Source of the DNA: Patescibacteria group bacterium
GTDB taxonomy: Bacteria > Patescibacteriota > Patescibacteriia > Magasanikbacterales > GWA2-37-8
Reading direction: 5' to 3'
NCBI GenBank assembly: GCA_028705565.1
Contig: JAQWDH010000006.1
Coordinates: 1-59,779, forward strand
Length of the DNA stretch: 59,779 bases
Part shown: piece after piece, positions 7,165 through 48,541 of the stretch
How the letters are laid out: the number at the start of each line of letters is the position of its first letter
How positions within the stretch are numbered: position 1 is the stretch's first letter
Position numbers and translations under genes: made by a program
Notes under the pieces: model-generated
What the model saw: only the letters and a program-made list of their open reading frames with translations
The model's database searches: none
Told to the model about the DNA's origin: nothing

Positions 7165-8334
7165 ATGAATTCGCTTAGAATTTTAATCACAACAGGTATT
7201 TTTCCGCCAAGCATTGGCGGGCCGGCGAGAATCGTGGAACAGTTGTCGTCTGATTTGTCTTTGAAAAATATAAAAGTAAGCGTGCTTGCTTTTGGAGAAG
7301 AAGACGGCAAGATTCGCAGTTACAATGTTTTTAAATGCGAAAGCAAAATAAATTTCGCTTTATCGGTTTGGCGGCTTGGTAAAGAAGCCGATGTAATTTA
7401 CACGTTTGATTTATACACAGCCGGATTTTTTTCGTGGCTTATCGGAAAAGTTATTTTGCGAAAAAAATTAATTGTGCGTTTCGCTGGCGACAGCGCATGG
7501 GAATCGGCGTATAATCAAGGATTGACAAAAGATGATATTTTGACTTTTCAAGAAAAATTTTACGGAATAAAAATTTGGATGATGAAAAAAGCCAGAAGTT
7601 TGATTTTGAAAGGCGCTGATAGCGTGGTGTCGGTTAGTTATTTTATGAAAAATTTGGCGGAAAAAATCGGAGTTGAAAAAGAAAAAATTGAAGTGATATA
7701 TAATTCCGTGGATTTTATTGATTTTAAAAATTTAAATTGTGAAACCGAAATATTGCAAGATAAATTTGGTTTAAGAAATTTAAAAATAATAGTTACAGCA
7801 GGGCGTTTTGTGCCATGGAAAGGCATTGATGGTTTGATTAAAGCGATTGATTTATTAAAATCAGAGCGACAATTTTCGTTCAAACTTTTAATAATAGGGG
7901 ATGGACCTGATTTTGGAAATTTAAAAGCGTTGGTTGACGAGAAAGGATTAAACGACGAAATTTTATTTACAGGCAAAATTCCACAAGACAAGATGTTCGC
8001 TTATTTGAATTTAGCCGATGTGTTTGTTTTAAATTCAAAATACGAAGGGCTGTCGCATGTTTTATTGGAAGCGTTGCGTGCGGGAAAGCCAATTGTCGCG
8101 AGCGATTGCGGAGGAAATTCGGAAGTGGTTGAAAACGAAAAAAACGGTTTATTGGTTGAATATAACAATATAAAACAATTATCCGAAGCCGTCAAAATAA
8201 TATTGACGGAAGAAAAGTGGCGCGCGTCCGAGTTTAAAAAAATTTGCGTTGAAAGTTTAAAAAAGTTTAGCTGGCAAAACGTGGTTGAACGAACAGTTAA
8301 TGTTTTTGATAAAATTAAACAAAAGCATGAATAA
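7165..8334 (+). CDS. Glycosyltransferase family 4
   Basis: RILITTGIFPPSIGGPA... at the N-terminus and ...FVLNSKYEGLSHVLLEALRAGKPIVASDCGGNSEVVENEKNGLL... at the C-terminus. Confidence 0.85.
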   Translation: MNSLRILITTGIFPPSIGGPARIVEQLSSDLSLKNIKVSVLAFGEEDGKIRSYNVFKCESKINFALSVWRLGKEADVIYTFDLYTAGFFSWLIGKVILRKKLIVRFAGDSAWESAYNQGLTKDDILTFQEKFYGIKIWMMKKARSLILKGADSVVSVSYFMKNLAEKIGVEKEKIEVIYNSVDFIDFKNLNCETEILQDKFGLRNLKIIVTAGRFVPWKGIDGLIKAIDLLKSERQFSFKLLIIGDGPDFGNLKALVDEKGLNDEILFTGKIPQDKMFAYLNLADVFVLNSKYEGLSHVLLEALRAGKPIVASDCGGNSEVVENEKNGLLVEYNNIKQLSEAVKIILTEEKWRASEFKKICVESLKKFSWQNVVERTVNVFDKIKQKHE

Positions 8335-9772
8335 AATTTTACTGATCAATCCTCCGTTTAATATCGCGAAAGAAAATTACGACAGCTCAGTTTCCGTGGG
8401 TCTGCTTAGCATTGCCACATATTTGGATAGTAAAGGTTTTTTTGTGGAAATTGTTGACGGCGCGCGGCAAAAAAATTACGAAGAATTGATAAAACAAAAC
8501 GCGATTAATTGCGATTGGGCCGGTATTTCGGTGATGACAATGCAAGTTCCGAACGCGTTGAAAATCAGCCGTCTTATCAAAGAAATGAATCCTAAATGTA
8601 AAATTGTTTGGGGTGGAACGCACCCGACTTTTTTTGCGCGTCAAACATTGTTTCACTCACTTGTTGATATTGTTTGTTTGGGAGAAGGCGAAATAACTTT
8701 TTATGAACTTGTCGCGAACAAAATTTTATCGGAAATAAAAGGCATAGCTTATAAAAAAAACAATGAGATTTTTATCAATCCTCCGCGTGAACTCCACGAC
8801 CCTTCGCAAATGCCGCTTTTTAATTGGGATTTGGTTTCAAAAGAAATTTTAGAAAAACTTTATCTGATACCGTCGCTCACTTCTCGCGGCTGTCCGCATC
8901 AATGCGCTTTTTGCATTAACGCGATTTTAAAAAATAATTGGAGGGCTAGGACAGCGGAACAAGTTTTGCGCGATTTGGAAATTATAAAACAAAAAAAATA
9001 TTTTTCGGATAAAAAACTAAGATTTTGGGATGAAAATTTTTTTGTGGACATCGTCAGAGCCAAAGCCATTGTTAAAGGAATGATTGATAAAAATTTAAAT
9101 ATCCCGTGGGAAACCACTGTTAGAGCCGATTATATGCGAAATGGAATGATAGACGATGAATTCATGTCTAAATTAAAACAGTCAGGTTGTTATCTTTTGT
9201 CGTTTGGGGCCGAATCCGGCAGTTCACGCGTTTTAAAGAAGATAAACAAAGGCGTAGCCCCGAACCAAATTGTTGATTCGGCCAAGCTTTGTTTAAAATA
9301 CGGCATTGTGCCGCAATATTCTTTTATGATAGGTTTGCCCGGTGAAACAAGAGAAGATATGAACGCTACTTTAAAATTAATAGACATATTGGTCAAACTG
9401 AGCGATAAGGTTCAAATTTTGGGTCCGCAGGCGTTTCGTCCTTATCCGGGTTCGGATTTGTATGAAGAATGTCTTGCGTCCGGTTGGCGCGCTCCGCAAT
9501 CTTTGGAAGAGTGGTCTCGTTTGGCGGAAAATCAATTGAGTTATTTATCAGTGAAAAATTTTCCTTGGGTAAAAGACAAAGATTTTGTGGAATCTATGGA
9601 AGCCTATACGCGATTTGGAGCTCATAGCATAAAAAGCGCGATGGGTTCCAGTGTTAAAGCGCAAAAATGGTTGAAGCTGATTTTTGTTTTGATTTGCCAA
9701 TTGCGCTGGAAAATGAAATTTTTCGCGTGGCCGATTGAGTATAAAATCGCGAAAAAATTTGTAATAAAATGA
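8327..9772 (+). CDS. B12-binding-domain radical SAM protein (paralog A)
   Basis: The N-terminal Rossmann-like part is typical of COG1032/class B rSAM (MNKILLINPPF..., VWGGTHPTFF, CLGEGEITFYEL). Cluster motif is SRGCPHQCAFC (CX3CX2C), followed later by GLPGET. The ATG at 8327 overlaps the upstream stop (ATGAATAA); the track start at 8285 is a TTG inside the previous gene. Confidence 0.85.
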   Translation: MNKILLINPPFNIAKENYDSSVSVGLLSIATYLDSKGFFVEIVDGARQKNYEELIKQNAINCDWAGISVMTMQVPNALKISRLIKEMNPKCKIVWGGTHPTFFARQTLFHSLVDIVCLGEGEITFYELVANKILSEIKGIAYKKNNEIFINPPRELHDPSQMPLFNWDLVSKEILEKLYLIPSLTSRGCPHQCAFCINAILKNNWRARTAEQVLRDLEIIKQKKYFSDKKLRFWDENFFVDIVRAKAIVKGMIDKNLNIPWETTVRADYMRNGMIDDEFMSKLKQSGCYLLSFGAESGSSRVLKKINKGVAPNQIVDSAKLCLKYGIVPQYSFMIGLPGETREDMNATLKLIDILVKLSDKVQILGPQAFRPYPGSDLYEECLASGWRAPQSLEEWSRLAENQLSYLSVKNFPWVKDKDFVESMEAYTRFGAHSIKSAMGSSVKAQKWLKLIFVLICQLRWKMKFFAWPIEYKIAKKFVIK

Positions 9773-9773
9773 T

Positions 9774-10772
9774 ATGAGCCAATTGATGATAAGTTTAGAC
9801 AAAAATATTTTCAATTTTGATTCCGCCGCGGCGAGACGCATGATTGAATATGGAGAAAAAAACGAGCTTTTTATTGTTATTCCGGATAATGATAAACGAT
9901 ATTTGGATTTAAGCGCGAAAGTCCATGTATGGGGAACGGGAGGTTCAAAACTTACGCAATTTTTTCGTTTATTATACACAGGCAATAAAATAATTCATAA
10001 TTCAAGATTCATAATTCAAGATTCATTAATTACCACTCAAGACCCGTTTTTTACCGGTTTAGCAGGTTTGTTATTGAAGCGAAAAGAAACAACTTTTGAG
10101 ACGCAAGTTCATGGCGATTTTTACGGTTCGGATTATTATCAAAAAAGCGGACTGACAAACAAGATTCGTTTTTATATAGGAAAATTTTTATTGCCTCGCG
10201 CGGATAAAGTAAGAACCGTAAGCGAGCGCGTAAAACAAAGTTTAATAAAAATCGGCGTTAAATCTGAAAAAATAGAAATTAAACCAATTCAGGTTGATTT
10301 TGAAAAGATAAAAAATTATCAGCCGAAATTTGATTTACATCAAAAATATCCAGATTATGAAAAAATATTTTTGGTTTTAGGACGGTTTGACGCAGTTAAA
10401 AATATCAGATGGCTGATAGAAGTATTTTGTGAAGTTGTAAAACAAAAAAATTATTTATTATTAATTATCGGAAGCGGACCGGATGGGCACAATATAACGA
10501 CGCACGCCACTCGTTGCATGTTGCGTAAAAACATAAAATTTGAGCCATGGACAAACGATCCGATAAGTTATATAAAGACAGCGGATTGCCTTTTGTTCCC
10601 AAGTTTGAGCGAGGGATACGGATTGGCGGCGATGGAAGCGAGTGCCGCCGGAACGCAGGTGATAATGACGGATGTTGGTGTGGCAAATTATGAATTAAAA
10701 CTCGGACCGAAAGTCAAAATCGCGCCGGTGGGCGATAAAGAAAAATTTATTCAGGAGATTTTACAAATATGA
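9774..10772 (+). CDS. Glycosyltransferase family 4-like
   Basis: C-terminal motif ...LLFPSLSEGYGLAAMEASAAGTQVIMTDVGVA.... The N-terminal half is divergent. Confidence 0.7.
   Translation: MSQLMISLDKNIFNFDSAAARRMIEYGEKNELFIVIPDNDKRYLDLSAKVHVWGTGGSKLTQFFRLLYTGNKIIHNSRFIIQDSLITTQDPFFTGLAGLLLKRKETTFETQVHGDFYGSDYYQKSGLTNKIRFYIGKFLLPRADKVRTVSERVKQSLIKIGVKSEKIEIKPIQVDFEKIKNYQPKFDLHQKYPDYEKIFLVLGRFDAVKNIRWLIEVFCEVVKQKNYLLLIIGSGPDGHNITTHATRCMLRKNIKFEPWTNDPISYIKTADCLLFPSLSEGYGLAAMEASAAGTQVIMTDVGVANYELKLGPKVKIAPVGDKEKFIQEILQI
9993..10020 (+). repeat. Two perfect tandem copies of a 14-nt unit (ATTCATAATTCAAG) inside the GT4-like CDS, followed by a degenerate third copy
   Basis: Direct reading gives 9993-10006 = 10007-10020 = ATTCATAATTCAAG. 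10021 onward starts ATTCAT again and then diverges. Confidence 0.8.
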
Positions 10773-11389
10773 CAAGTATGACAAGGCCATGGGAAAAATT
10801 TTTTAAAGAAAAAATGATAAAGATTTTTACAGAAAAAAAGTCAGTTTTAGATATTGGCGGAGGACTGCGCACAGAAGCAAGCAAGGGTAATCGCATAGAT
10901 AAAAAAAATGTATGGCTGGATGAATATATAAAAAAAGTGAATTATAAAGTTATGGATAAGGTTTTAGATTACCATCCGGATATTGTCGGTGATGTGCAAA
11001 ATTTAAATTTAGAAGACGAATGTTTGGATGCTATTATTTGTATAGCTGTTTTGGAACATGTGGAAGAGCCGCAAAAGGCGATTAAAGAAATTTATCGTGT
11101 TTTAAAACCCGGCGGATATTGTTTTATTTATGTTCCTTTTTTATATTATTACCACCCGATGAAAGGATATTATCAAGATTTTTATCGGTTTACTTTTGAT
11201 GGAATTAAATATATTACACGACAATTTAGCCAAGTGGAAATACAAAATGTGCGAGGCGCATTGGCAACAGTTGTGAATTTATTTCCGATTTTTTCCAAAC
11301 ATTCAAATTGGTTTGATTGGTTGGATATTGTGTTTAAAAAAATTTTTAGCCGTCAAACTAGCGGTTACTATGTTTTTTGCATTAAATAA
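10769..11389 (+). CDS. Class I SAM-dependent methyltransferase (Methyltransf_11-like)
   Basis: Motif I VLDIGGG and post-I region ...AIICIAVLEHVEEPQKAIKEIYRVLKPGGYCFIYVPF.... The start overlaps the upstream stop (ATGA). Confidence 0.8.
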   Translation: MTSMTRPWEKFFKEKMIKIFTEKKSVLDIGGGLRTEASKGNRIDKKNVWLDEYIKKVNYKVMDKVLDYHPDIVGDVQNLNLEDECLDAIICIAVLEHVEEPQKAIKEIYRVLKPGGYCFIYVPFLYYYHPMKGYYQDFYRFTFDGIKYITRQFSQVEIQNVRGALATVVNLFPIFSKHSNWFDWLDIVFKKIFSRQTSGYYVFCIK

Positions 11390-11408
11390 CGCCAAAATCA
11401 TTTAATTT

Positions 11409-12761
11409 ATGAAAGTTTTATTATTAAGCATAGATCCCGCTAAATCAAGAAAATGTGTAAATAAAGATTTGGCCGGAGGTATGGGTACCGGAACGTGGGT
11501 GGGTAATTCTTTACGCGCCAGACTTTTTGGATATCTTAAAAAAAAGAGTGTTATTTTACCAGATATTACGATCGCTTATATATCCGCAATTTTTAAACAG
11601 GCCAATTACGAAGTATCAATGCTTAAAATTTTAGAAGACAAAATTCCAGACATTGGCCCGGTTGATTTTGTTTTAATTTCGACTTCAATCGTGGATTGCA
11701 ACCACGAGTTAGATATTATTAAAAAAGTAAAGCAGAGAGGATATATTGTAGGCGTTTATGGCACTTTTGCCACTGCGGTTCCTGAATTTTTTTCTGCGCA
11801 TGTTGACTTTTTAATTAAAGGGGAACCGGAAGCGGGCGTATTAAAAATTATTTCCGACAACAGTTTGCCAAAAGGAATTGTGGAATCTGGCGTGGTAGAA
11901 AATTTGGAATTATTACCATTTCCAGATTGGAGCTTTTTTCCAATTAATTGTTTTTCTTATTTTCCAGCTTTGAATAAAAAACCGGTCCTTACAATGCTTA
12001 CATCCAGAGGATGTCAACATAGATGTTCTTTTTATTGCCCATATACGATTAACGCTGGGTGTAAATACCGCGCGCGTTCTTTGCAAAATATTGTAAATGA
12101 AGTGGAATATTTAATCAATGATTTTGGCGTAAAGGCGATAGATTTCAGAGATCCGATTTTTACTTTTAATCGAGCTCGAGTAGTTGGTTTTTGTAATGCA
12201 TTGATAAATAAAAAAATTAAAATTATTTGGTCGTGCGAAACCAGGATTGATAATTTGGATGAAGAATTGCTCAAAATTATGAAAATGGCCGGCTTAAAAC
12301 ATATAAATGTTGGCATTGAATCCGCGGTAGAAAGTGTTTTAAATAAATCAAATAGGTTGCCAATAAAAAATGAGATTCAGGAAAAAATTATTAAGTTTTG
12401 TCAAAAATCTGGAATAAGTGTCGCCGCATTTTATATTCTTGGCATGGACAATGATACAAAAGAAAGTATTGAGCAAACCATAGATTATGCAAAAAAATTA
12501 AATACACTGGTGGCTCAATTTACCATTAATACTCCTTTTCCCGGAACAAATTTTTATCTTAGAATAAAAAAAGAAGGGCGTATTAATAAATGCTGGGAAG
12601 ATTTTGATTCTTACAGTCCCGTATACAAACACCAGAATTTAAGCGCGGAAGAGTTGTTGTTTTTAAAAGAAAAAGCGTTTGTTTCGTATTATTTTCGTTT
12701 TGCATATATAATTAAATATTTTTCAAAATATTTATTTAGCAAATTAGTATGTCTATTCTAA
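11409..12761 (+). CDS. B12-binding-domain radical SAM protein (paralog B), atypical CX3CX3C motif
   Basis: Architecture matches the other paralogs (VYGTFATAVPEFF, IKGEPEAGVLKI), but the cluster motif reads TSRGCQHRCSFYCPY (tgt caa cat aga tgt tct ttt tat tgc, 12012-12038). Confidence 0.75.
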   Translation: MKVLLLSIDPAKSRKCVNKDLAGGMGTGTWVGNSLRARLFGYLKKKSVILPDITIAYISAIFKQANYEVSMLKILEDKIPDIGPVDFVLISTSIVDCNHELDIIKKVKQRGYIVGVYGTFATAVPEFFSAHVDFLIKGEPEAGVLKIISDNSLPKGIVESGVVENLELLPFPDWSFFPINCFSYFPALNKKPVLTMLTSRGCQHRCSFYCPYTINAGCKYRARSLQNIVNEVEYLINDFGVKAIDFRDPIFTFNRARVVGFCNALINKKIKIIWSCETRIDNLDEELLKIMKMAGLKHINVGIESAVESVLNKSNRLPIKNEIQEKIIKFCQKSGISVAAFYILGMDNDTKESIEQTIDYAKKLNTLVAQFTINTPFPGTNFYLRIKKEGRINKCWEDFDSYSPVYKHQNLSAEELLFLKEKAFVSYYFRFAYIIKYFSKYLFSKLVCLF

Positions 12762-13570
12762 TAACAGGAGGCAAGGGTTTTATTGGCTCACAACTGGAGT
12801 CTTATTTGCGAGACGGAGGACATGAAATCGTTTTGTTTAATGGGGACATATCTAACATTGAATCAGTAAAAAATTTTACAAGTGCAAAGCAGATTAGAGC
12901 TGTAATTCATTTAGCGGCTACAGTGAGTAGTCGGAGAAGCGGCTTATATGAGAAAACAAATATAATTGGAACGAGCAATATATTGTACCTTTGCCAGAAA
13001 TTGAACGTAGAGAGATTGATTTTTTTGTCTAGTTTACGGGTTCTCTCTTCAATTAAGGATCCATATATTGATTCAAAAAGACAGGCCGAGAAGATGATTA
13101 TTGGTTCAGGCGTTCCTTATATAATTTTGCGTCCGAGTATGGTGTACGGACCGAATGACAAAAAAAATATCGGTTTTTTATTAAAGATAATAAAAGAAAA
13201 GCATTTAGTTCCAGCGTTAGATTTTGTTTTTCAACCTTTATTTTTAAAAGATTTATTACGAGTGATAGAGGCTTGTTTGACTGTTTTACCAAATAAAGTT
13301 TTTAACGTACCTGGCGGTCAAACTTTATCTTTCGGTGAATTTTTGAATTTTGTTGGAGATTGTGGTTATAAATTTAAAATTTTTGGTTGGCCAAAAATAA
13401 ATCATATATTAATTAAAATTTTTTCTTATTTTCCATTTTCGCCAGTGATTCCATCGCAGGTGGATAGTTTATTTTCAAAGGAAGTTTTCAACGAACGGTC
13501 GTGGAGCAAAGAGTTAAACATAAAGGAAACTTTTTTAAAAGACGGTTTGGAAAAAATTTTATCAGCATGA
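12749..13570 (+). CDS. NAD-dependent epimerase/dehydratase family protein (short SDR-type sugar nucleotide enzyme)
   Basis: ILITGGKGFIGSQL glycine-rich NAD motif, and YIDSKRQAEK (YxxxK). Size is 273 aa, with a 13-nt overlap with the upstream gene. Confidence 0.8.
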   Translation: MSILITGGKGFIGSQLESYLRDGGHEIVLFNGDISNIESVKNFTSAKQIRAVIHLAATVSSRRSGLYEKTNIIGTSNILYLCQKLNVERLIFLSSLRVLSSIKDPYIDSKRQAEKMIIGSGVPYIILRPSMVYGPNDKKNIGFLLKIIKEKHLVPALDFVFQPLFLKDLLRVIEACLTVLPNKVFNVPGGQTLSFGEFLNFVGDCGYKFKIFGWPKINHILIKIFSYFPFSPVIPSQVDSLFSKEVFNERSWSKELNIKETFLKDGLEKILSA

Positions 13571-13601
13571 AATTGAACAAAGCGATTATTAAATTTAGAA
13601 A

Positions 13602-14318
13602 ATGTTTATAAAAAACAAGAGTATGAAATTGTCAATTATCATCCCTGTTTATAACGAAAAAGAGACAATATTGTTGCTTTTAGAAAAAGTTGACCGCGTA
13701 GATATGGGTGTGATTCAAAAAGAAATTATTATTGTTGACGACGGTTCGAATGACGGAACGCGTGATTTGTTAAAAACAGTGGAAAATAAATACAATGTAA
13801 TTTATCAAAAGATAAACAGCGGTAAAGGTTTCGCAATTCGCGCAGGATTAGCTCAAGCGACGGGGGATTGGGTTGTAATTCAAGATGCGGATTTGGAGTA
13901 CGACCCGAATGACTTAAAAAAAATGTTGGAAAAAATACAAAAAGTCAATGTGTCTGTAGTATATGGCTCTCGCCGTTTGAACCGTAATTATTTTAATGAG
14001 AGGCATTCAGGCCACATATTCGCTTTAGGAGGTATTTTTTTAACATGGTTAACAAATATTCTTTTCCACGCTGATATCACAGACGAATCCACATGTTATA
14101 AAATGTTTAAAACAGACTTGATAAAAAGTTTAAAATTAGCTTGTTTAAAATTTGAATTTTGTCCAGAAGTGACAGCAAAAATAATAAAGAAAGGTATAAA
14201 AATTTACGAGGTACAGATCAATTATTATCCTCGTCAAAAATTGGAAGGCAAAAAGATCAATTGGATTGATGGTTTGAGCGCTATTTGGACTTTGATTAAA
14301 TATAAATTTGTTTCATGA
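13602..14318 (+). CDS. Glycosyltransferase family 2 (polyprenyl/dolichyl-phosphate hexosyltransferase-like, soluble form)
   Basis: LSIIIPVYNEKETI..., IIIVDDGSNDGTRDLL and VIQDADLEYDP (DXD). An alternative ATG at 13623 is equally possible. Confidence 0.85.
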   Translation: MFIKNKSMKLSIIIPVYNEKETILLLLEKVDRVDMGVIQKEIIIVDDGSNDGTRDLLKTVENKYNVIYQKINSGKGFAIRAGLAQATGDWVVIQDADLEYDPNDLKKMLEKIQKVNVSVVYGSRRLNRNYFNERHSGHIFALGGIFLTWLTNILFHADITDESTCYKMFKTDLIKSLKLACLKFEFCPEVTAKIIKKGIKIYEVQINYYPRQKLEGKKINWIDGLSAIWTLIKYKFVS

Positions 14319-15712: not shown

Positions 15713-15744
15713 TGGTTGGTTAGTATTAATATTATTAGCAAGAT

Positions 15745-17214: not shown

Positions 17215-17320
17215 AATAATTGATGATTTTATAGCGGTTGAATCATCGTGTCATAGTTTTTTCATTTTAGAAAAAAGTAATTTGTTAAAAGAGAGCCCTC
17301 CGTTAATGCTAAAAATTTTT

Positions 17321-18334: not shown

Positions 18335-18356
18335 ATATTTTTTCACGATAAAAACC

Positions 18357-19400: not shown

Positions 19401-19415
19401 CAAAAAAATTAAAGT

Positions 19416-20756: not shown

Positions 20757-20782
20757 ATACTTCAAAATGCAATTAAATTTCT

Positions 20783-21928: not shown

Positions 21929-21933
21929 AATTT

Positions 21934-22890: not shown

Positions 22891-22909
22891 TAAGTTATTA
22901 TGATAAGGT

Positions 22910-24781: not shown

Positions 24782-24847
24782 AATTTACAAAAGAAGTCGA
24801 AAGTCGCAATATCATGTTTAAAGTAAAACAAAAATTTTTCAATAAGT

Positions 24848-25684
24848 ATGAATGATATTTTATTAAATAACGACAATAATTCCGAAAAAATTGTTTATAG
24901 ACCATGGCTTCAGTTTGTGAACAAAAAATTTATGGTTAAAGATAACCAGTTTTTCTTTATTGAATGTCAAAATGTCGGTTTTACGCAAGGAAGCAATGAT
25001 TTAATTGTAAATAAATTAAAATTATTATTTAAAAAGTTTCCAAAATTATTTAATTTAGTTTATATTCTTTTTGGTGTAATTTTTATTGGAAGAAACGCGC
25101 AATATGCGATAAGAGCAATTGGAACCAGTGGTTTGATTTTGAATTTGGGCTCCGGGGTTAAGAAAATACGAAAAGATGTGGTCAATGTTGATTTTTATCC
25201 ATTTGATGGAGTTGATATTGTCGCTGATATATCGGAGTTGCCTTTTATTGATAACTCAGTTGACGCGGTTGTTAGTGAGTTTGTTTTGGAGCATTTACCT
25301 AATCCAGAAAAAGTTGTTAAGGAGATGTTTCGCGTATTGAAGCCCGGAGGAATATTATATATTTCCGTACCGTTTGTGGCCAGTTTTCATTCCTCGCCAA
25401 ATGATTTTTTCCGTTGGAGCAAACAAGGTTTAAGAGTATTGCTTAAAGATTTTCAGGAAATAGAAAGCGGTATTAGATGCGGTCCGACATCCGCTTTAGT
25501 TTATGTAATAAGTGAATGGCTTAGCACTGTTTTAAGTTTTGGTATGACAAAAATTCAGCAGATTCTTTTTATGATTTTTATGATATGTTTTTCTCCTTTA
25601 AAATTGTTGGATTTTGTAATTTCAAAGGCGCCAAGTAGCGAGAACATCGCTTATGGTTTTTATTTTATTGGTAAAAAAATATGA
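24848..25684 (+). CDS. Class I SAM-dependent methyltransferase (paralog of 10769-11389)
   Basis: ILNLGSG motif I and ...AVVSEFVLEHLPNPEKVVKEMFRVLKPGGILYISVPF..., colinear with the 10769 methyltransferase. Confidence 0.8.
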   Translation: MNDILLNNDNNSEKIVYRPWLQFVNKKFMVKDNQFFFIECQNVGFTQGSNDLIVNKLKLLFKKFPKLFNLVYILFGVIFIGRNAQYAIRAIGTSGLILNLGSGVKKIRKDVVNVDFYPFDGVDIVADISELPFIDNSVDAVVSEFVLEHLPNPEKVVKEMFRVLKPGGILYISVPFVASFHSSPNDFFRWSKQGLRVLLKDFQEIESGIRCGPTSALVYVISEWLSTVLSFGMTKIQQILFMIFMICFSPLKLLDFVISKAPSSENIAYGFYFIGKKI

Positions 25685-27096
25685 ATATAGCTTTAATTAC
25701 CCCTCCCTATGATTTAATAAGGAAAGGATATGGATCCAAAAAGTTTATTAAAATTGGATTTTTTCCTCCTTTGGGAGTAGGATATTTAGCCACCCCATTA
25801 TTAAAAAAGGGTCACAAGGTTAAAATAATTGATTGTCCGCCGTTAGAGTATCAGAATGAAGATGTTAAAAGAGAGTTAATTAATTTTAAAGTAGATCTTA
25901 TCGGAGTTTCATCTTTAACCGCTTCAGCGCAAGAGGCCTATTCTTTGATTAAATTTCTTAAGGATAGTTTTCCAAAAGTTCCGATAATTTTTGGTGGTGC
26001 CCACGTAAGCTGTTTTTCAGAAATTATTACAAAGGAAGTGCCGATGGTTGATTGCCTTTGTTATGGCGAATCGGAAACAATCCTAACAAAAATAGTAGAT
26101 TCTTTTGAAAAAGACGGTAAAATAGACAAAAACATACCAGGCACAATGTTTAAAAATGAATGTGGAAATTTTGTTAGGAATTCGCCAATGATGCCTATAA
26201 TGAATTTAGACGAGATATTGCCTCCCGCATACGAACTTTACGATTATAAAATTTACAGCCCGCTTCCTTTGCAGTATAAAAAATATCCAGTGGCTAATGT
26301 TATTACATCCAGGGGGTGTCCGTGGGGAAGATGTACTTTTTGTTTCTCTTCGGGAAAGGCGTCTCAAATATATAGACGACACAGCCCGAGCCGAGTGATT
26401 AATGAATTGAAAATTTTAGTCAATGAGTTAGGAATAAAAGAAGTAACATTTTGGGACGATAATTTTTTGATAAATGAAGTTTGGATAAATGAATTTTGCG
26501 ATCTTTTAGATCGTTCCGGGTTAAATATTCCTTGGTCAGCTTGCGGCAGAGTAAACACAGTTACAAAATCAATGTTGGAAAGATCTAAAAGGTCAGGCCT
26601 TTGGTGTGTTTTTTACGGATTTGAAACTGGAAACGAAGATTTACTTTTACGTATAAAAAAAGGCGCAACGTTAGACCAAGCCAGGCAAGCTGTAAAATGG
26701 ACTAAAAATTTAGGCATAGACATCCGCGGATCATTTATGTTGGCCTTGCCTGGCGAAACTCCAGAAAAAGCCCACAAAACGATTAGATTTGCTAAAGAAT
26801 TAGATGTGCCGTTTGCTCATTTTTTATTAACTTTTCCAGAGTGGGGGACAAAATTATATGATGATGCCATTAAAAGCGGACAAGTGGTTAACTCGTACAA
26901 GGGAAGAACAGGAGTCACATACATTCCGGAAGGATATAAGGATGCGGATGAAGTAAGAAATATGCAAAAAGAAGCTTATAGGTCGTTTTATTTTCGTCCA
27001 TCATTTATTTGGAAACATTTTAAAAGATTAAAAAGTATTGATATTGTTAAGCAGTACTATAAAGGTTTAAAATATATTTTAGGAATTAGCCAATAA
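25681..27096 (+). CDS. B12-binding-domain radical SAM protein (paralog E), CX4CX2C motif
   Basis: IFGGAHVSCF and CYGESETILTKI. The cluster motif is TSRGCPWGRCTFCF (26317-26343), followed by ALPGET. ATGA overlap with the upstream methyltransferase. Confidence 0.8.
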   Translation: MNIALITPPYDLIRKGYGSKKFIKIGFFPPLGVGYLATPLLKKGHKVKIIDCPPLEYQNEDVKRELINFKVDLIGVSSLTASAQEAYSLIKFLKDSFPKVPIIFGGAHVSCFSEIITKEVPMVDCLCYGESETILTKIVDSFEKDGKIDKNIPGTMFKNECGNFVRNSPMMPIMNLDEILPPAYELYDYKIYSPLPLQYKKYPVANVITSRGCPWGRCTFCFSSGKASQIYRRHSPSRVINELKILVNELGIKEVTFWDDNFLINEVWINEFCDLLDRSGLNIPWSACGRVNTVTKSMLERSKRSGLWCVFYGFETGNEDLLLRIKKGATLDQARQAVKWTKNLGIDIRGSFMLALPGETPEKAHKTIRFAKELDVPFAHFLLTFPEWGTKLYDDAIKSGQVVNSYKGRTGVTYIPEGYKDADEVRNMQKEAYRSFYFRPSFIWKHFKRLKSIDIVKQYYKGLKYILGISQ

Positions 27097-27099
27097 TTT

Positions 27100-28785
27100 A
27101 TGAAATTAAAAGAAAATAAAATTTTATTTATAATTCTATTGATAGCCTTTTTTTTACGTTTAGGAGGGATTTTTCACGGTTACCCTTTGATGGTTTTTAG
27201 TGATGAAGGCGCAACATTGTTGGCTAGTTTAAAAATGATAGGTACTTTTTCTCTGCGCGCTGGCAATGCATTAGGTTATTATTATCCAGCTCTGCTTTCT
27301 TATGTTTTTCTACCATTTCTTTCTTTTTTTATTGGTATTTGTCGATGGTTGGGGGTTTTTACCGATATTCAGCAGATTAAAGAAACTGTACTTTTAAATA
27401 TAGGGTTTTTTGCTCCTCTAATAAGACTCGTCTCAGTATTATTCGGAACAGCTACGGTTTATTTGGTGTATAGAATAACTAAGGCATTATTTAATAAATC
27501 AATTGTTAGTTTATTGGCGGCCTGGTTTTTGGCCGTAAGTTTTTATCATTCTGGTGTTTCTCATTATGGTAATACTTGGACAATCCAGACCTTTTTCTAT
27601 TTGTTAGTGCTTCTTTGGGCCATAAATTTTTTAAAAAAATCAACTATTTCTTTTAGGGATTATATTTATGGAGCCTTGTTGGTTGGTTTATCATTTGGAA
27701 TCAATTTTGTCGGTATCATAACTTATACTTGGTTTTTAATTGTTCATTTTTTAAAAAATAGAAACAAAAATTTAATAAATACCTTTTTAATAAATAAAAA
27801 TTTTTGGCTGGCAAATTTTATTTTATTAGCCTTTATCGCCATCATTTATTGGTTAAATCCCGCAGGTTTAAATAATTATTTTAATAGAATAACCGTATCG
27901 GTTCCGCGAGATAACTACGCTTCGTATCAGTTGTTTCATGCCAGCACCCTGTCCGGCTTATTTTTTTATCTTAAGAATGTGTTTTTTGTAGAGCCTTTCC
28001 TCTGTGTATTTTTTTTGGTGGGCAGTTGGATGTTGTGGAAAAAAGAAAAGACGGCATTTCTATTGGTTTCTGTCGGCGCTCTGCTCTATTTGGCATTATT
28101 ATCGCCGCAGACTGGATTGTTAATTAGATATGCTTTGCCGCTAGACCCATTGTTAGCTATTGTTTCAGCCTATTTTTTATATGAACTTTTTAGTGTTTAC
28201 AGTAAAAAATTAGGCATAATTTTATTAGTTGTTGCTTCGCTTTATGTGTTGATGTTTGGCGTATTATTTAATTTACGTTTAATGAAAATTGACACAAGAG
28301 TGTTGGCTAGAAATTGGATATTAAGCGATCTGCCGTCAGGATCAAGTATCAAAAATTATGATTTAGCGGATGAAATAAATTTAATAGAAGATAAGGCCAG
28401 CATTAATTTGATACAAAATTATTTGCCAGGACTACTTTCTACAAGGAGGAAATATTTGTTTGCTTTGGAAGAATATCAATATCCAAAACCGAATTTTTTT
28501 GTTTTAAATTATGAATTACCGGCTGGAATTTTACCAAAAACTGATTATATTATTTTAAGCGATATTGAAAAAAAAGATTTGGATAGTAAAGCAGGGACGA
28601 TTTTGGATGAGTATTCTTTAATTAAGCGTTTTTATCCTGTAGAAACGCCAATTAATGGTGTTTGGCCCGGTTATTATGAACTTGGAGCCCCTTTTAATCA
28701 CTCTATGTTTAAACCGTTAATGTTATTTAGATTGTATGGCATGGGACCGTATGTTGAAATTTATAAAATAAAATCATCGGAATGA
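27100..28785 (+). CDS. GT-C fold membrane glycosyltransferase (GT39-like, lipid-carrier dependent)
   Basis: 561-aa polytopic protein. The N-terminus ILFIILLIAFFLRLGGIFHGYPLMVFSDEGATLL... shows the first-loop acidic motif typical of the family, and a soluble C-terminal domain follows. Confidence 0.65.
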   Translation: MKLKENKILFIILLIAFFLRLGGIFHGYPLMVFSDEGATLLASLKMIGTFSLRAGNALGYYYPALLSYVFLPFLSFFIGICRWLGVFTDIQQIKETVLLNIGFFAPLIRLVSVLFGTATVYLVYRITKALFNKSIVSLLAAWFLAVSFYHSGVSHYGNTWTIQTFFYLLVLLWAINFLKKSTISFRDYIYGALLVGLSFGINFVGIITYTWFLIVHFLKNRNKNLINTFLINKNFWLANFILLAFIAIIYWLNPAGLNNYFNRITVSVPRDNYASYQLFHASTLSGLFFYLKNVFFVEPFLCVFFLVGSWMLWKKEKTAFLLVSVGALLYLALLSPQTGLLIRYALPLDPLLAIVSAYFLYELFSVYSKKLGIILLVVASLYVLMFGVLFNLRLMKIDTRVLARNWILSDLPSGSSIKNYDLADEINLIEDKASINLIQNYLPGLLSTRRKYLFALEEYQYPKPNFFVLNYELPAGILPKTDYIILSDIEKKDLDSKAGTILDEYSLIKRFYPVETPINGVWPGYYELGAPFNHSMFKPLMLFRLYGMGPYVEIYKIKSSE

Positions 28786-29912
28786 AAATTTTGTATATCA
28801 CAAACAATCTAAGCGGTTCAGATGGTTGGAGTAGGTATAGCATTGACATTGCTAAGGCGTTTGATGAACAAGAAACATTGTGGGTAGTTTCAAATAAATT
28901 AGAAAATAAATTTAGTCAGAAGAAATTATTATACGAACCGTTGCGATATCTATCAAACATTTTTTGGGTTTTTGTTTCCGCCGTAAAGATAAATAAAACT
29001 ATAAAAAGTTTTTCTCCCGATGTTGTTCATTTTTTGGTTGAGCCGTATCTAATGGTTTTACCTTTTTTGAATATAAAAAAAGCAAAAATCGTTTCCACAG
29101 TACATGGGACATATTCATTTTTGCCAAACACCAGAAAAAATGGAATTAAAAAAATTATTTTATTATGGTGGATAAAGTTTATTTATAAAAAGATAGATAA
29201 TATAGTTGCTGTTAGCAATTACACGAAAAATTATTTGATTGGATGTTTAAACGATTATCATATTAAAGGCGTAAAAGAAAAAATAACCGTTATAAGCAAT
29301 GGAGTTGATTTTTATAATTTTTATCGCGCACGTGAAAAAAAATATATAACTAAGACGAAACATATATTATTTGTAGGCGCGGTTAAGAGGAGAAAGGGAT
29401 TGCATGAAGCGATTAACGCTTTAAAATTTTATAACGATAATTTTTCAAGCGATTTTGTTTTTGATATTGTAGGATATTATAAAAAAAAAGATAAATATTA
29501 TTTGTATTTGAAATCGTTGATAAATTCATACGAATTGGACGACAAAATTAAATTTAAAAATAGAGTTGACGAATTAATTTTACGTGATTATTATGTTAAA
29601 GCTGATTTGTTTTTAATGTTGTCCACAAAGGAAGAAAATAAATTTGAAGGATTCGGACTGGTTTATTTGGAAGCAAACACCTATGGCGTTCCTTGTGTAG
29701 GCGCCAAATATAGCGGGGCGGAAGACGCTATTTTGGATGGAAAAACCGGTTATTTGGCGGAAGCGAATTCTAGAAAGGATGTGTCCGATAAAATTAATTT
29801 GGTTTTGGATAAACATACTATTAATTCGGATGTTTGCGTAAGTTGGGCAAAACAAAACGATATAAAAATAAAAAGCAAGGAAATATTTGAAATATATAAA
29901 AAAATTAAATAA
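28782..29912 (+). CDS. Glycosyltransferase family 4
   Basis: MKILYITNNLSGSDGWSRY... and ...FEGFGLVYLEANTYGVPCVGAKYSGAEDAILDGKTGYL.... ATGA overlap with the upstream gene. Confidence 0.8.
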   Translation: MKILYITNNLSGSDGWSRYSIDIAKAFDEQETLWVVSNKLENKFSQKKLLYEPLRYLSNIFWVFVSAVKINKTIKSFSPDVVHFLVEPYLMVLPFLNIKKAKIVSTVHGTYSFLPNTRKNGIKKIILLWWIKFIYKKIDNIVAVSNYTKNYLIGCLNDYHIKGVKEKITVISNGVDFYNFYRAREKKYITKTKHILFVGAVKRRKGLHEAINALKFYNDNFSSDFVFDIVGYYKKKDKYYLYLKSLINSYELDDKIKFKNRVDELILRDYYVKADLFLMLSTKEENKFEGFGLVYLEANTYGVPCVGAKYSGAEDAILDGKTGYLAEANSRKDVSDKINLVLDKHTINSDVCVSWAKQNDIKIKSKEIFEIYKKIK

Positions 29913-29916
29913 ATTT

Positions 29917-30666
29917 ATGAGAATTTTTCAAGGATTGTATAAAATTAAAGAAGATTTTAAATGGTTATTCGGTTATCCGATTGTGGATTTTTTTACTGAT
30001 TCGTGTGTTAATTATGATAAGTATTGGGAGAAAAGAGGTCGTAACAGTCGTCCTTTTTTGTCAAAATGGCAGAAAAAAAGAGCTGTCTTTGTTTTAAAAT
30101 CAATTGAAAAAGGTTCCACAGTATTGGATTTAGGATGCGGAGACGGCATCCTTTTAAAATATCTTCAAGAAAAGGCAGAAATTAAAGGATGTGGCGTGGA
30201 TTCAAGCGATAAGATTTTAAACCAGGCAAAATCCATAGGAGTTTTCACTATAAAAATGGATATTATTGATATAGACAATATAAAATCACTATCAATATTT
30301 GATTATATAACATGTTTTGAAATTATTGAACATTTGTCTTGCCCAGAAATTTTGCTGAATTGCTTAAAAGGAAAAGTGCGCAAAGCTATTTTTTTTTCCA
30401 TTCCAAATACAGGATATTATGCGCATCGTTTAAGATTACTATTCGGCAAATTTCCATTACAGTGGGCCGGGCATCCGGGCGAACATTTGCGTTTTTGGAC
30501 GCTATCAGATATAAAATGGTGGGTAAAATCATTAGGTTTTAATATTGAAAGTTTGGAATTATACGAAGGATTTCCCATATTAAATAAAATATTTCCGTCA
30601 TTATTTGCGCAAGGTATATTACTAAAAATAGTTGATAACAATAAAGTGAAAAATAATGCGAAATAA
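29917..30666 (+). CDS. Class I SAM-dependent methyltransferase, MetW-like
   Basis: VLDLGCGDGILLKYL motif I, FDYITCFEIIEHL, and GEHLRFWTLSDIKWW resembling the MetW family. The ATG at 29917 is preferred; the track start at 29887 is a TTG inside the upstream gene. Confidence 0.75.
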   Translation: MRIFQGLYKIKEDFKWLFGYPIVDFFTDSCVNYDKYWEKRGRNSRPFLSKWQKKRAVFVLKSIEKGSTVLDLGCGDGILLKYLQEKAEIKGCGVDSSDKILNQAKSIGVFTIKMDIIDIDNIKSLSIFDYITCFEIIEHLSCPEILLNCLKGKVRKAIFFSIPNTGYYAHRLRLLFGKFPLQWAGHPGEHLRFWTLSDIKWWVKSLGFNIESLELYEGFPILNKIFPSLFAQGILLKIVDNNKVKNNAK

Positions 30667-30670
30667 AATT

Positions 30671-32095
30671 ATGAGAGTTTTTTTGGTTTTACTGAAAATT
30701 AATTCTAATTGCCAGTGGCATGTTGGATTGTCTTATATTTCCGCCGTGCTTAAAAAAGGAGGGCACGACGTGGAACTGTTTGAACTTGAAAATTTTCATG
30801 AACAAAATCATTTTTTGTTGGAAAGAATAAAAGAATTCCGTCCAGGAGTAATTGGCATATCCTCCAATTCTCATCAGTTTAAATATGTTGATATTTTGGC
30901 AAAAGAGATTAAAGATTGCGTGTCAGTTCCGATATTTTTAGGTGGAGTTCATACAACTTTGAACCCGGAAAATATTAAGGAACTGAAATATGTGGATGGT
31001 GTTTGTATCGGAGAGGGAGAAGAAGCATTTTTGGAATTGGTAAATGCCATAAATAATAAACGAAATTTAACGGATATAAAAAATTTTTGGATAAAACACG
31101 GAGGTGAAGTTATAAAAAACACCAGCCGTCCTTTAATTGAAAATTTGAATTTTTTACCATTTCCCGATCGTTCAATTTTTAATTATTTTAAAGAGAAAAA
31201 AACTAAAAAAGTACCGCGTTTTATTTTTTCCCGCGGGTGCCCTTTTGACTGCGCTTATTGTTGTAACCACGCGATAAAAAAAGTTTATAAAGATTTAGGA
31301 AAATATGTTAGATTCAGGACTGTTAATATGGCCATCGCTGAAATTGAAGCGGAGCTGCAAAAATATAATTTTTCTCATTTTAAATTAGACGACGATACCT
31401 TTTCTTTAAATAAAAGTTGGTTAAAAGAATTTTGTAATACAATTGCGATCAAAAATTGGAATTTAACTTTTGAATGCAATGTTCGTCCTGGCACAATTGA
31501 CGCGGAAGCGATGAATGCTTTAAAAAAAGGCGGATGTACTTTGGTAAAAATTGGTATAGAAACCGGGAATGAAGCATTAAGAAAAGAAGTGCTGAACAGA
31601 AAATTTTCAAATCAAGATATAATTAAAACATTCAAAATAGCTAAAGAAAATGGCATAAAAACCTTTTCTTTTAATATGATTGGCATACCTGGTGAAAATC
31701 GTACGACAATTAAAGAAACCATTGATTTAAACGCAAAAATAAAGCCGGATTTTATGCAGGTAACCATTTTTTATCCTTATCGTGGAACTGTTTTGGGGGA
31801 TGAGTGTTTTCGGAAAGGGTATGTGGAAAGATTCTCTGAAGATTCGTATATGGAAAAATCTTCTTTAAAATTACCAGGTATTTCAAGACACCTGATAGAA
31901 AAGTCTGCTAAAAATTTTAAGTTTAAAGTATATTGGCATTATGACAAAAAAAAAGCGTTAAAAGAAGCTATTTTAATAGTAAAAATGTTTATTTTGTCTA
32001 ATTTTGTACTTTGTTTTGTTTTTAAAAAAGCCCGTATTTTGGTTAAAAACATTAAAAAAATTAGGTTGACTTTAATCAGAAAAATGATAAAATAG
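30671..32095 (+). CDS. B12-binding-domain radical SAM protein (paralog F)
   Basis: FLGGVHTTLNPE, CIGEGEEAFLELV, SRGCPFDCAYCCNH (CX3CX2C), GIPGEN. An alternative ATG at 30656 overlaps the upstream gene by 11 nt. Confidence 0.85.
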   Translation: MRVFLVLLKINSNCQWHVGLSYISAVLKKGGHDVELFELENFHEQNHFLLERIKEFRPGVIGISSNSHQFKYVDILAKEIKDCVSVPIFLGGVHTTLNPENIKELKYVDGVCIGEGEEAFLELVNAINNKRNLTDIKNFWIKHGGEVIKNTSRPLIENLNFLPFPDRSIFNYFKEKKTKKVPRFIFSRGCPFDCAYCCNHAIKKVYKDLGKYVRFRTVNMAIAEIEAELQKYNFSHFKLDDDTFSLNKSWLKEFCNTIAIKNWNLTFECNVRPGTIDAEAMNALKKGGCTLVKIGIETGNEALRKEVLNRKFSNQDIIKTFKIAKENGIKTFSFNMIGIPGENRTTIKETIDLNAKIKPDFMQVTIFYPYRGTVLGDECFRKGYVERFSEDSYMEKSSLKLPGISRHLIEKSAKNFKFKVYWHYDKKKALKEAILIVKMFILSNFVLCFVFKKARILVKNIKKIRLTLIRKMIK

Positions 32096-36414: not shown

Positions 36415-36415
36415 T

Positions 36416-38044: not shown

Positions 38045-38071
38045 ATTTATCCGAGTAATAATTATTTTTTT

Positions 38072-39865: not shown

Positions 39866-39868
39866 TTT

Positions 39869-42311: not shown

Positions 42312-42325
42312 TAGTAATTTGAAAT

Positions 42326-43480: not shown

Positions 43481-43514
43481 AAATTATTTTTTGAAAAAGA
43501 TAAAAATAATATTT

Positions 43515-44828: not shown

Positions 44829-44875
44829 ACAATAATGTTGTTATGAAAGTAAAATAGTGTGTTTGAGTTAAAAAA

Positions 44876-47289: not shown

Positions 47290-47300
47290 ATTCATGGTAG

Positions 47301-47330
47301 TTTTTTTGCCTTGCATATTTTTTTGCCTTG
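47301..47330 (+). repeat. 13-nt direct repeat TTTTTTTGCCTTG x2 in the intergenic region upstream of the NeuB-family gene
   Basis: 47301-47313 and 47318-47330 are identical on direct reading. Confidence 0.7.
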
Positions 47331-47339
47331 TATTATTAT
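47311..47339 (+). promoter_or_regulatory. Candidate internal sigma70-type promoter
   Basis: TTGCAT (47311-47316), a 17-nt spacer, then TATTAT (47334-47339). It lies only ~10 nt from the ATG at 47350, so the transcript would be nearly leaderless. Confidence 0.3.
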
Positions 47340-47349
47340 AAAGTAATAT

Positions 47350-48480: not shown

Positions 48481-48541
48481 TCATAAATTAGATGTATTTT
48501 TTATAAAATTAATTAAATTAATTTAATTTAAATAAGAAAAT

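Follow-up and report, generated by a model that had tools for sequence, protein, structure and literature searches.

A Patescibacteria glycan locus rich in radical SAM enzymes, with candidate cassettes for remodelling lipid-linked sugars

Class-B radical S-adenosylmethionine (SAM) enzymes of sugar tailoring are, by report or by proposal, methyltransferases of carbon centres in the pathways to gentamicin, fortimicin and moenomycin (PMC9204698). The radical SAM 1,2-diol dehydratase AprD4, which acts on paromamine and has the NADPH-dependent reductase AprD3 as its partner (PMC5461906), binds no cobalamin (Cbl) (PMC12931638). In cell envelopes, the ArnC-ArnD-ArnE/F-ArnT, GtrB-GtrA-Gtr, PpgS-Rv3779 and AglJ-type dolichyl-phosphate (Dol-P)-hexose systems set a family 2 glycosyltransferase (GT2), a modifying enzyme and a GT-C-fold transferase in the same order, and ATP-binding cassette (ABC)-transporter loci for O-antigens and S-layer glycans combine Wzm/Wzt with a Wzy_C ligase of the WaaL/PglL/WsaB type. 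Here we analyse a stretch of 59,779 nucleotides (nt) from a Patescibacteria group bacterium (contig JAQWDH010000006.1 of assembly GCA_028705565.1; hereafter the window), which holds about 50 tightly packed genes, every one on the plus strand. The original prediction for this DNA described seven paralogous B12-type radical SAM genes, here A to G, and one SPASM-type gene embedded in a glycan locus. All seven open reading frames (ORFs) are indeed present, with starts at 8327, 11409, 14315, 15745, 25681, 30671 and 58602, the SPASM-type gene is confirmed at 18357–19400 by its PF04055 and PF13186 domains, and Pfam and NCBIfam scans place the radical SAM genes in a glycan locus, interleaved with transferases and methyltransferases.

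Most of these enzymes share with GenK, GenD1, Fms7 and MoeK5 a Rossmann Cbl domain and a radical SAM core, a likeness at the level of architecture, but here several of them occur per primary envelope glycan locus of uncultured ultra-small prokaryotes. The order GT2, modifying enzyme, GT-C is that of the polyprenyl-phosphate-sugar systems, and the GT2s of the window match Dol-P-Man synthase (DPMS), ArnC, GtrB, AglJ, PgfS and PpgS; unlike in the ArnC-ArnD-ArnT type, the presumed modifier is a radical SAM protein and not a hydrolase such as ArnD. With the ABC-transporter loci the window shares an ABC-2 permease, a Wzy_C protein, many GT4 and GT2 genes, methyltransferases, PseB, PseC and PseI-like enzymes, KdsB and WbuX, although literature searches found no such locus described with multiple class-B radical SAM enzymes. 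We consider it probable, taking the explanation as a whole, that the window represents most of a cell-envelope glycan locus of a CPR (Candidate Phyla Radiation) bacterium, that this locus is built from portable modules, and that its radical SAM enzymes serve as sugar-tailoring catalysts, with lipid-linked sugars modified before extracellular transfer.

One such module is centred on C (14315–15712; 465 aa), a class-B-type protein scoring 87.4 bits for PF02310 and 100.2 bits for PF04055. It is preceded by a polyprenyl-phosphate glycosyltransferase-like GT2 (13602–14318; 238 aa), which overlaps C by 4 nt. In the PDB this GT2 comes closest to the P. furiosus Dol-P-Man synthase (5mlz), aligned at 2e-18 along the entire catalytic domain, with ArnC and GtrB ranking next. 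Among NCBIfam models, AglJ, ArnC, PgfS, PpgS and Dol-P-hexose transferase score highest. Downstream lies PMT2_a (19416–20756), a GT-C-fold glycosyltransferase of the PMT_2 family (PF13231 at 42.5 bits, cut-off 26.1) with 8 predicted transmembrane-like segments; in the window, a block of D, a GT4 gene and the SPASM gene is inserted between C and PMT2_a. For comparison, ORFs were called in 84 loci (given L numbers below) and searched by BLAST against the window proteins. Where C orthologs reach at least 54% identity, a GT2 gene directly precedes C in 21 of 26 loci, frequently overlapping it by 4 nt, and a GT-C gene stands directly downstream in 13 of 23, rising to about 20 of 27 when a distance of a few genes is allowed; these downstream PMT2_a orthologs are 52–63% identical. 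The cassette is also found in the archaeal contigs L004, L021 and L030. The GT2-C-GT-C cassette is conserved across CPR bacteria, DPANN archaea and Elusimicrobia, yet it is not universal. An order this tight, and often translationally coupled, in two domains of life argues for a functional unit acting on the GT2 product.

The C family itself is large and well conserved, with more than 120 database clusters at 57–72% identity and 213 relatives in a scan of one genome per GTDB species. An alignment of 13 members has a mean column identity of 74%, with GG and EGE invariant. Between Patescibacteria, DPANN archaea and Elusimicrobia, members are 55–72% identical, and a culturable carrier, Desulfocarbo indianensis SCBM (L047), has an ortholog at 44%. 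Relatives at 55% identity or more belong to Patescibacteria, DPANN (Woesearchaeota, Nanoarchaeota SCGC AAA011-G17 and an archaeal contig with RpoN and Rpr2) and Elusimicrobia/Endomicrobiales, and those at 38–50% to Planctomycetota including Brocadia, Omnitrophota, Desulfobacterota/Smithella, Spirochaetia, Kiritimatiellales and Bacteroidales. The GT2 and C pair is 50–63% identical between Patescibacteria and the DPANN-type contigs L004 (JGI 3300031862), L021 and L030, which carry RpoN, Rpr2 and archaeal ribosomal genes; an identity so unusually high between domains suggests horizontal exchange of the cassette. A metagenome-assembled genome (MAG) of the anammox bacterium Candidatus Brocadia (L040) carries the GT2-C-GT-C cassette with C at 50% identity. 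For its relative Kuenenia, mass spectrometry alone is reported to show an S-layer O-glycan with unusually heavy methylation and with an unidentified 'dimethylated deoxyhexose' (PMC5088730), and the anammox S-layer glycan is a possible experimental handle, as a lead rather than as evidence.

E sits in a second cassette of the same logic, which comprises an ArnC-like GT2, an amidotransferase, the methyltransferase MT_2, E and a GT-C. The GT2 (21922–22890; 322 aa) is an ArnC/PgfS-like polyprenyl-phosphate glycosyltransferase with three C-terminal transmembrane-like segments at residues 214–288; it matches ArnC (185 bits, cut-off 529) and PgfS (158 bits) over its full length, below the equivalog cut-offs. 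It is followed by an asparagine-synthase-type glutamine amidotransferase (22910–24781; PF00733 323.6 bits, TIGR01536 482 bits against a cut-off of 267) and by the class-I SAM methyltransferase MT_2 (24848–25684; Methyltransf_11 62.8 bits), which overlaps E by 4 nt. E (25681–27096; 471 aa) is of class-B type, scoring 65.4 bits for PF02310 and 72.1 bits for PF04055. Directly after it comes PMT2_b (27100–28785), a second PMT_2-like GT-C with ten transmembrane-like segments, whose PF13231 score of 24.7 bits falls just under the 26.1 cut-off. Close relatives of E are rare: a metagenome scan returned two loci, namely the sister strain and contig L091 (77%). The block MT_2-E-PMT2_b-GT4_7-MT_3-F is kept in L091 at 63–77% identity, with a 76% MT_2 ortholog directly before the E ortholog and with E and F orthologs (74–77%) together on this single contig.

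A module of another kind is formed by B (11409–12761), an AprD4-like radical SAM protein and putative sugar 1,2-diol dehydratase, and the gene that follows it. B had been grouped with the B12-type enzymes, a placement that its features contradict: its PF02310 score of 23.8 bits lies under the gathering score of 32.1 bits, it carries 'GMDNDT' in place of GxPGET, it has no Gly-Gly motif, and it alone departs from the canonical CX3CX2C cluster motif with CX3CX3C. In a phmmer search of the PDB it matches AprD4 (6fd2) at 1e-33, and the CX3CX3C/'YCPY' motif is common to both proteins (B, GCQHRCSFYCPY; AprD4, GCPYPCRFYCPY). The AlphaFold2 (AF2) model of B (predicted local distance difference test, pLDDT, 90.4) superposes on AprD4 in Foldseek over its full length (E 1.6e-30, TM-score 0.81, root-mean-square deviation 2.9 Å over 444 columns), whereas the next fold, TsrM, has a TM-score of 0.62 and trails AprD4 by 14 orders of magnitude in E-value. 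The B family counts more than 1000 homologs in Parcubacteria/Giovannonibacteria, Aenigmarchaeota and Omnitrophica, most without a precomputed PF02310 match, and its alignment retains 'YCPY' and has no Gly-Gly motif. Given this likeness to AprD4, B should not be counted as a cobalamin enzyme; fold and motifs predict that it is probably, indeed almost certainly, cobalamin-independent. Assignment as an AprD4 equivalog was rejected, since B scores 154.5 bits against NF033070 (cut-off 500), over residues 184–416 only, the radical SAM half, and we refer to it as AprD4-like only.

The next gene (12749–13570; 273 aa) overlaps B by 13 nt and encodes a short-chain dehydrogenase/reductase (SDR)-family NAD(P)-dependent oxidoreductase (Epimerase PF01370, 72 bits), a putative reductase partner. 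The gene directly after B encodes an SDR in the window and also in all other examined B loci that continue beyond B, and the pair is adjacent in L011, L017 and L019 as well as in one Aenigmarchaeota, one Omnitrophica and one Giovannonibacteria contig. We infer by analogy with AprD4/AprD3 that B and the SDR constitute a deoxygenation module. The analogy covers the fold, the cluster motif, the missing cobalamin-domain signature and the NAD(P)-dependent oxidoreductase gene after B; the settings differ, B lying in a CPR/DPANN cell-surface glycan locus and AprD4 in an actinomycete aminoglycoside cluster, where it serves apramycin C3'-deoxygenation. In a Giovannonibacteria genome (GCA_016186825.1; L094, 4091–8159), B and the SDR come immediately behind the gene of a large serine recombinase and apart from other glycan genes, a placement which hints that the two-gene module is mobile.

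Taken together, the seven ORFs all match the Pfam Radical_SAM domain PF04055 above cut-off (E 1e-15 to 2e-28), and seven such matches in 60 kb are not attributable to chance. Each of the seven joins this domain to an N-terminal domain of Rossmann type. In an alignment of the seven, the R-G-C...C..C motif and both Glu of 'GEGE' are invariant. PF02310 is matched above its gathering score by A (68.8 bits), C (87.4), D (64.5), E (65.4), F (63.0) and G (45.7). We also applied the hallmarks of base-off Cbl binding described in PMC9204698: a Gly-Gly pair on beta4, a Gly-Glu pair at alpha5 and a motif resembling GxSxL. Gly-Gly is present in A, C, E, F and G and replaced by a conserved G-N in D; a GxSxx motif is found in A, D, E, F and G, with GxTxT in C; and a GE-type motif is found in all seven, these motifs being indicative of Cbl binding only. 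Gly-Gly and GEGE are kept at the family level in family alignments. The proposal of a shared B12-type architecture therefore stands for A, C, D, E, F and G and falls for B, and G is broken inside its radical SAM domain. As judged from domains and motifs, the six ORFs other than B, with G in its broken form, have the architecture of class-B cobalamin-type enzymes.

Pairwise identity among the seven is only 23–34%, with F and G the closest pair at 34%, and this implies ancient, distinct subfamilies rather than recent duplicates. They are paralogous, as had been claimed, in a deep sense only, and were not made by duplication within the locus; the seven copies appear as anciently diverged subfamilies assembled as modules. 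None of them can be assigned to a characterised family: in the NCBIfam profile search, all seven score far below every curated cut-off. The top models are HpnJ for C (261 bits), E (201), B (166, with AprD4 at 154) and A (158), HpnJ/BchE for D (about 132), PhpK for F (134) and ApyD for G (86); membership in HpnJ, BchE, PhpK, HpnR, QCMT, BzaD, TsrM and other such families was accordingly rejected. Public names of the relatives are generic or misannotated, for example as BchE or YgiQ. In A, C, D, E and F, the last 45 residues have a net charge of +8 to +11 and include many aromatic ones, a composition compatible with work at a membrane surface; F is the sole radical SAM protein with a transmembrane-like segment.

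From these observations we propose the following mechanism. B would dehydrate a sugar 1,2-diol to a ketone by radical chemistry, and the SDR would reduce the ketone with NAD(P)H to a deoxy sugar, as in AprD4/AprD3. In the C and E cassettes, the GT2 would load a single sugar onto polyprenyl phosphate at the cytoplasmic face, and the radical SAM enzyme, with its strongly basic and aromatic C-terminal tail suited to the membrane surface, would modify the lipid-linked sugar. The reaction would most likely be C-methylation, the commonest class-B reaction and hence the default guess (PMC9204698), with epimerisation or rearrangement possible. After flipping, the GT-C would transfer the altered sugar to a glycan or protein on the outer side of the membrane, so that the scheme would follow the logic ArnC to ArnD to ArnT with a radical SAM enzyme in the ArnD position. 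A, D, F and the GT4-paired SPASM enzyme would tailor the main GT4-built, ABC-exported glycan or its pseudaminic-acid/Kdo (3-deoxy-D-manno-octulosonic acid)-type branches, and G would be decaying. In a bolder reading, which we offer tentatively and with some doubt, the GT2-radical SAM-GT-C cassette (of the C type, or of the E type with its ArnC-like GT2) might represent a previously unrecognised class of extracytoplasmic glycosylation, in which cobalamin-dependent radical chemistry (C-methylation, deoxygenation or carbon-skeleton rearrangement) remakes a polyprenyl-phosphate monosaccharide before its placement on the surface by the GT-C.

Several points weigh against this mechanism. Substrates and reactions are assigned from gene neighbourhood and distant homology, cobalamin binding by the class-B-type ORFs is predicted from motifs, and the SDR is likened to AprD3 by gene position and oxidoreductase type. 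The 238-aa GT2 before C has no transmembrane helices and each of its family matches lies below the curated cut-off. The AF2 model of C (pLDDT 82.9) matches the class-B folds QCMT, TsrM, CysS, TokK and OxsB at TM-scores of 0.62–0.73, but its top structural match is AprD4 too, at 0.73–0.76, so C could be non-methylating or even cobalamin-free despite its strong PF02310 score. Distant members of the C family (below 50% identity, in Planctomycetota, Desulfobacterota and others) mostly have no GT-C neighbour, and their GT2 gene is often downstream. Finally, and in a further difference from the ArnC-ArnD-ArnT type, the window has no flippase gene: no GtrA_DPMS_TM, ArnE/F or EamA-type small membrane protein was found in it, and the intergenic gaps are too short to hold one. 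Among related loci, GtrA-fused glycosyltransferases occur in L002 and an EamA protein in L004.

The radical SAM enzymes might instead tailor soluble nucleoside diphosphate (NDP)-sugars or free glycosides in the cytoplasm, the adjacency to GT2 and GT-C genes reflecting co-regulation only, which we regard as unlikely though deserving serious weight. GenK acts on gentamicin X2 and DesII on a thymidine diphosphate (TDP)-sugar, both of them soluble substrates that count for this explanation. So does the soluble paromamine used by the sugar-acting AprD4 (PMC5461906), as do the neighbours of A, D and F, which are GT4s and soluble methyltransferases and not polyprenyl-phosphate glycosyltransferases, and the lack of a transmembrane segment in every radical SAM protein but F. 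The tight and frequently coupled cassette order in two domains of life speaks against it, together with the basic, aromatic tails. It is improbable, in our estimate, that C (and E) resemble HpnJ or the calditol synthase Cds and contract the ring of a lipid-linked hexose to a carbocyclic (cyclitol) head group, yielding a modified lipid. The proposed substrate of HpnJ is a lipid-linked glucosamine that a glycosyltransferase has put in place, and Cds is proposed to form calditol by ring contraction of the sugar head group on archaeal lipids (PMC13459092, PMC9204698); HpnJ is also the best NCBIfam model for A to E, covering C over its full length. In the HpnI/HpnK/HpnJ pathway from hopanoid glucosamine to a cyclitol ether, as here, a glycosyltransferase gene neighbours a class-B radical SAM enzyme thought to act on a lipid-linked sugar. 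However, A to E score 133–261 bits against an HpnJ (TIGR03471) cut-off of 578 (for C, 260.9 against 577.6), that is, under half; there is no match to HpnI, the GT2 matches HpnB weakly, and the window contains no HpnK-type deacetylase and no hopanoid genes (SHC, HpnH, HpnI, HpnK). A cyclitol phosphate is, moreover, no glycosyl donor. The GT-C conserved downstream points to a transferable sugar rather than a cyclitol ether, and it makes ring contraction the less likely reaction for C, since it would be unable to pass a cyclitol on; the HpnI/HpnJ analogy for GT2 and C was rejected on these grounds.

Class-B enzymes are also known to modify lipids (the glycerol dialkyl glycerol tetraether (GDGT) enzymes, HpnP/R) and peptides (PoyC, ApyD) (PMC13459092, PMC9204698), and the top model of G, at 86 bits, is the enzyme ApyD of ribosomally synthesised and post-translationally modified peptides (RiPPs). 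The window enzymes could accordingly act on non-sugars, methylating or cross-linking a polyprenyl or membrane lipid or a RiPP-like peptide, with the glycan genes merely co-located. Such an explanation seems quite remote to us, as gene scans found no precursor-peptide, protease or lipid-synthesis gene in the window, and the neighbours of the radical SAM genes are without exception glycosyltransferases, sugar-nucleotide enzymes or methyltransferases, which accompany the orthologs in other genomes too. That several copies are non-functional remnants, so that their number overstates the working chemistry, is brought to mind by G, which is truncated in the window and interrupted by an in-frame TAG in a 98%-identical sister strain. 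A to F are nonetheless full-length with intact cluster motifs, orthologs of A to D (45–76%) exist in several genomes and those of E and F (74–77%) in L091, and the sister-strain loci retain intact reading frames with the exception of G in L088; extensive decay of the set is therefore highly improbable.

The locus does not stand alone: other CPR loci also carry orthologs of A, B, C, D and the SPASM gene. When 41 comparison loci with a length of 15 kb or more were examined, 15 had at least three class-B-like radical SAM genes within about 21 kb and three (L013, L030 and L075) had at least five. The densest 21 kb of the window contains five class-B-like radical SAM enzymes and the SPASM enzyme. 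The pattern is thus a recurrent one, of which the window offers a rich but not a unique case, and multi-radical SAM loci are common in anaerobes. The accompanying statement that no described surface polysaccharide is known to involve such enzymes agrees with our full-text literature searches, which found no description of one and no paper on class-B radical SAM enzymes in CPR/DPANN or in surface-polysaccharide loci. The enzyme classes are known; by the same searches, their conserved deployment in CPR/DPANN envelope-glycan cassettes appears to be new.

A life attached to the cells of a host is assumed for both CPR bacteria and DPANN archaea; surface glycans are thus probably central to it, and to our knowledge almost nothing is known of the chemistry of these glycans. 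Our analysis identifies radical SAM enzymes of cobalamin and AprD4 type as recurrent modular parts of CPR/DPANN glycan loci and predicts surface sugars with C-methyl, deoxy or rearranged skeletons. It would bring class-B and AprD4-type chemistry, familiar from antibiotics and hopanoids, into primary envelope biosynthesis, and it offers GT2 with C, and B with the SDR, as concrete enzyme-substrate pairs. Organisms of this kind are generally regarded as B12 auxotrophs. If cobalamin is truly required, their envelope biosynthesis would depend on corrinoid cross-feeding; the window has no cobalamin transporter gene, and an Rfam scan of it found neither a cobalamin riboswitch nor any other RNA family. 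Should the cassette prove to be a glycosylation class of its own, it would count as an envelope trait that ultra-small and anaerobic prokaryotes share and exchange horizontally, and it would tie their surface glycans to corrinoids from hosts or neighbours.

The remaining class-B-type enzymes are associated with GT4 and methyltransferase genes. A (8327–9772; 481 aa; PF02310 68.8 bits, PF04055 74.5 bits) sits between GT4 genes at 7165–8334 and 9774–10772, and this GT4-radical SAM-GT4 order is repeated in L002/L009 and L012, with A orthologs at 61–76% identity. Its GxSxx, GG ('VWGGTHP') and GEGE motifs are kept in the orthologs, and its nearest solved structures are QCMT (9ccb) and OxsB. The class-I SAM methyltransferase MT_1 (10769–11389; Methyltransf_11 59.9 bits), directly upstream of B, has a 71% ortholog in L012. 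D (15745–17214; 489 aa; PF02310 64.5 bits, PF04055 56.4 bits) is nearest to QCMT among solved structures (8.5e-19), and its 'WGNAHP', in which G-N replaces G-G, is kept along with GEGE in the 60–66% orthologs of L012, L014, L016 and L019. GT4_5 (17201–18334; Glycos_transf_1) is paired with the SPASM-domain radical SAM gene (18357–19400; 347 aa; PF04055 59.8 bits, PF13186 39.2 bits), a pair repeated in L007, L019 and L022. The SPASM protein reaches no NCBIfam family, is weakly similar (about 2e-5) to the sugar-acting radical SAM enzymes BtrN and BlsE, and has orthologs at 45–61% identity in other CPR loci. F (30671–32095; 474 aa; PF02310 63.0 bits, PF04055 88.9 bits) has its transmembrane-like segment at the C-terminus, residues 429–447, and scores 134 bits against a cut-off of 600 for PhpK. 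The MetW/Methyltransf_23-like class-I SAM methyltransferase MT_3 (29887–30666) directly precedes it, as a 75% ortholog does in L091, and the next gene after F is KdsB (32121–32897), which exceeds the cut-offs of two KdsB subfamily models (304.5 against 255 and 273.4 against 193) and of the equivalog TIGR00466 (172.7 against 155.2).

G (58602–59660) is a truncated class-B-type ORF of 352 aa, compared with about 493 aa in its relatives. It scores 45.7 bits for PF02310 and 57.2 bits for PF04055, but the radical SAM domain is cut at position 154 of 166, where the ORF stops after 'GLPNQS'. A continuation by frameshift was rejected, as no frame continues in the last 119 nt of the window. In the sister strain (L088), codon 373 of G is an in-frame TAG (11117–11119) in place of the Tyr found in a 50% relative, and the frame runs on for about 120 further codons to about 495 aa; this TAG is either a nonsense mutation (pseudogene) or a sequencing error. 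The window parts from L088 at 59653, exactly inside G, and its last 126 nt (59654–59779) match neither L088 nor any other fetched sequence, a break that could stem from a genuine rearrangement or insertion, or else from a chimeric end of the assembly. As read from both sequences, G is intact in neither strain.

The assignment of the DNA to a CPR-type organism agrees with proteins 98–99% identical in NCBI MAGs named 'Patescibacteria group bacterium'. Exact-sequence look-ups with the first and the last protein of the window yielded no match that would extend the contig. Metagenome contigs from JGI (3300029288 Ga0265297_10000933) and ENA (ERZ27247363 k141_61438), representing the sister strains L085 and L088, are 98% identical to the window, and positions 8907–25712 have an identical counterpart on a Logan metagenome contig. 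The sister-strain locus extends about 8 kb beyond G, giving roughly 68 kb in total, with genes for a 661-aa unknown protein, a DegT aminotransferase, a UDP-glucose dehydrogenase and an epimerase, followed by L27, MraZ and RsmH genes at the locus end. Gaps between the window genes are mostly below 70 nt and 4-nt overlaps are many. The window encodes seven GT4, three GT2 (one fused to a Zn-dependent alcohol dehydrogenase) and two GT-C (PMT_2) glycosyltransferases and five class-I methyltransferases; its export and ligation genes are a Wzm-type ABC-2 permease, a Wzy_C/TPR ligase-like membrane protein, an MsbA-type ABC exporter and a Capsule_synth protein. KdsB, PseB, PseC and the WbuX amidotransferase score above cut-off, and a PseI-like synthase, an AsnB-type amidotransferase, two ATP-grasp ligases, a thiamine pyrophosphate (TPP) enzyme and SDRs are also present. 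By this gene content, the locus is a predicted complex cell-envelope glycan locus with a pseudaminic-acid-type and a Kdo-type branch.

The pseudaminic-acid-type branch (41319–58600) contains PseB and PseC, the PseI-like synthase, WbuX, a class-III aminotransferase, an aldo-keto reductase, a cytidylyltransferase-DUF218 fusion, the two ATP-grasp ligases, the TPP enzyme (acetolactate-synthase-like), a FabG-like SDR and two methyltransferases, a gene set which implies an elaborately N-acylated or amidinated nonulosonic acid. At 38072–41308, the Capsule_synth (KpsC/KpsS-like) protein adjoins the MsbA-type ABC exporter, and in the archaeal locus L004 (18647–20951) a Capsule_synth gene adjoins a SPASM radical SAM gene; Kdo-linker-type capsule machinery (Capsule_synth, KdsB) would be unexpected in organisms thought to be without an outer membrane. 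A single 628-aa ORF at 32925–34811 fuses an N-terminal GT2 to a Zn-dependent alcohol dehydrogenase (threonine or scyllo-inosose dehydrogenase-like) and is followed by a cyclase/formamidase-like protein and a D-2-hydroxyacid dehydrogenase; together these may form a module that makes and attaches a non-sugar substituent. Near the start of the window, a 525-aa extended-SDR sugar dehydratase/epimerase (4376–5953) has a C-terminal extension of about 200 aa without a Pfam match. The GC content of the window ranges from 29 to 38%, falling to 29–32% at 16000–32000, 36000–40000 and 50000–54000 and reaching 35–38% at the locus ends, and these dips are consistent with a mosaic assembly of the locus from acquired modules.

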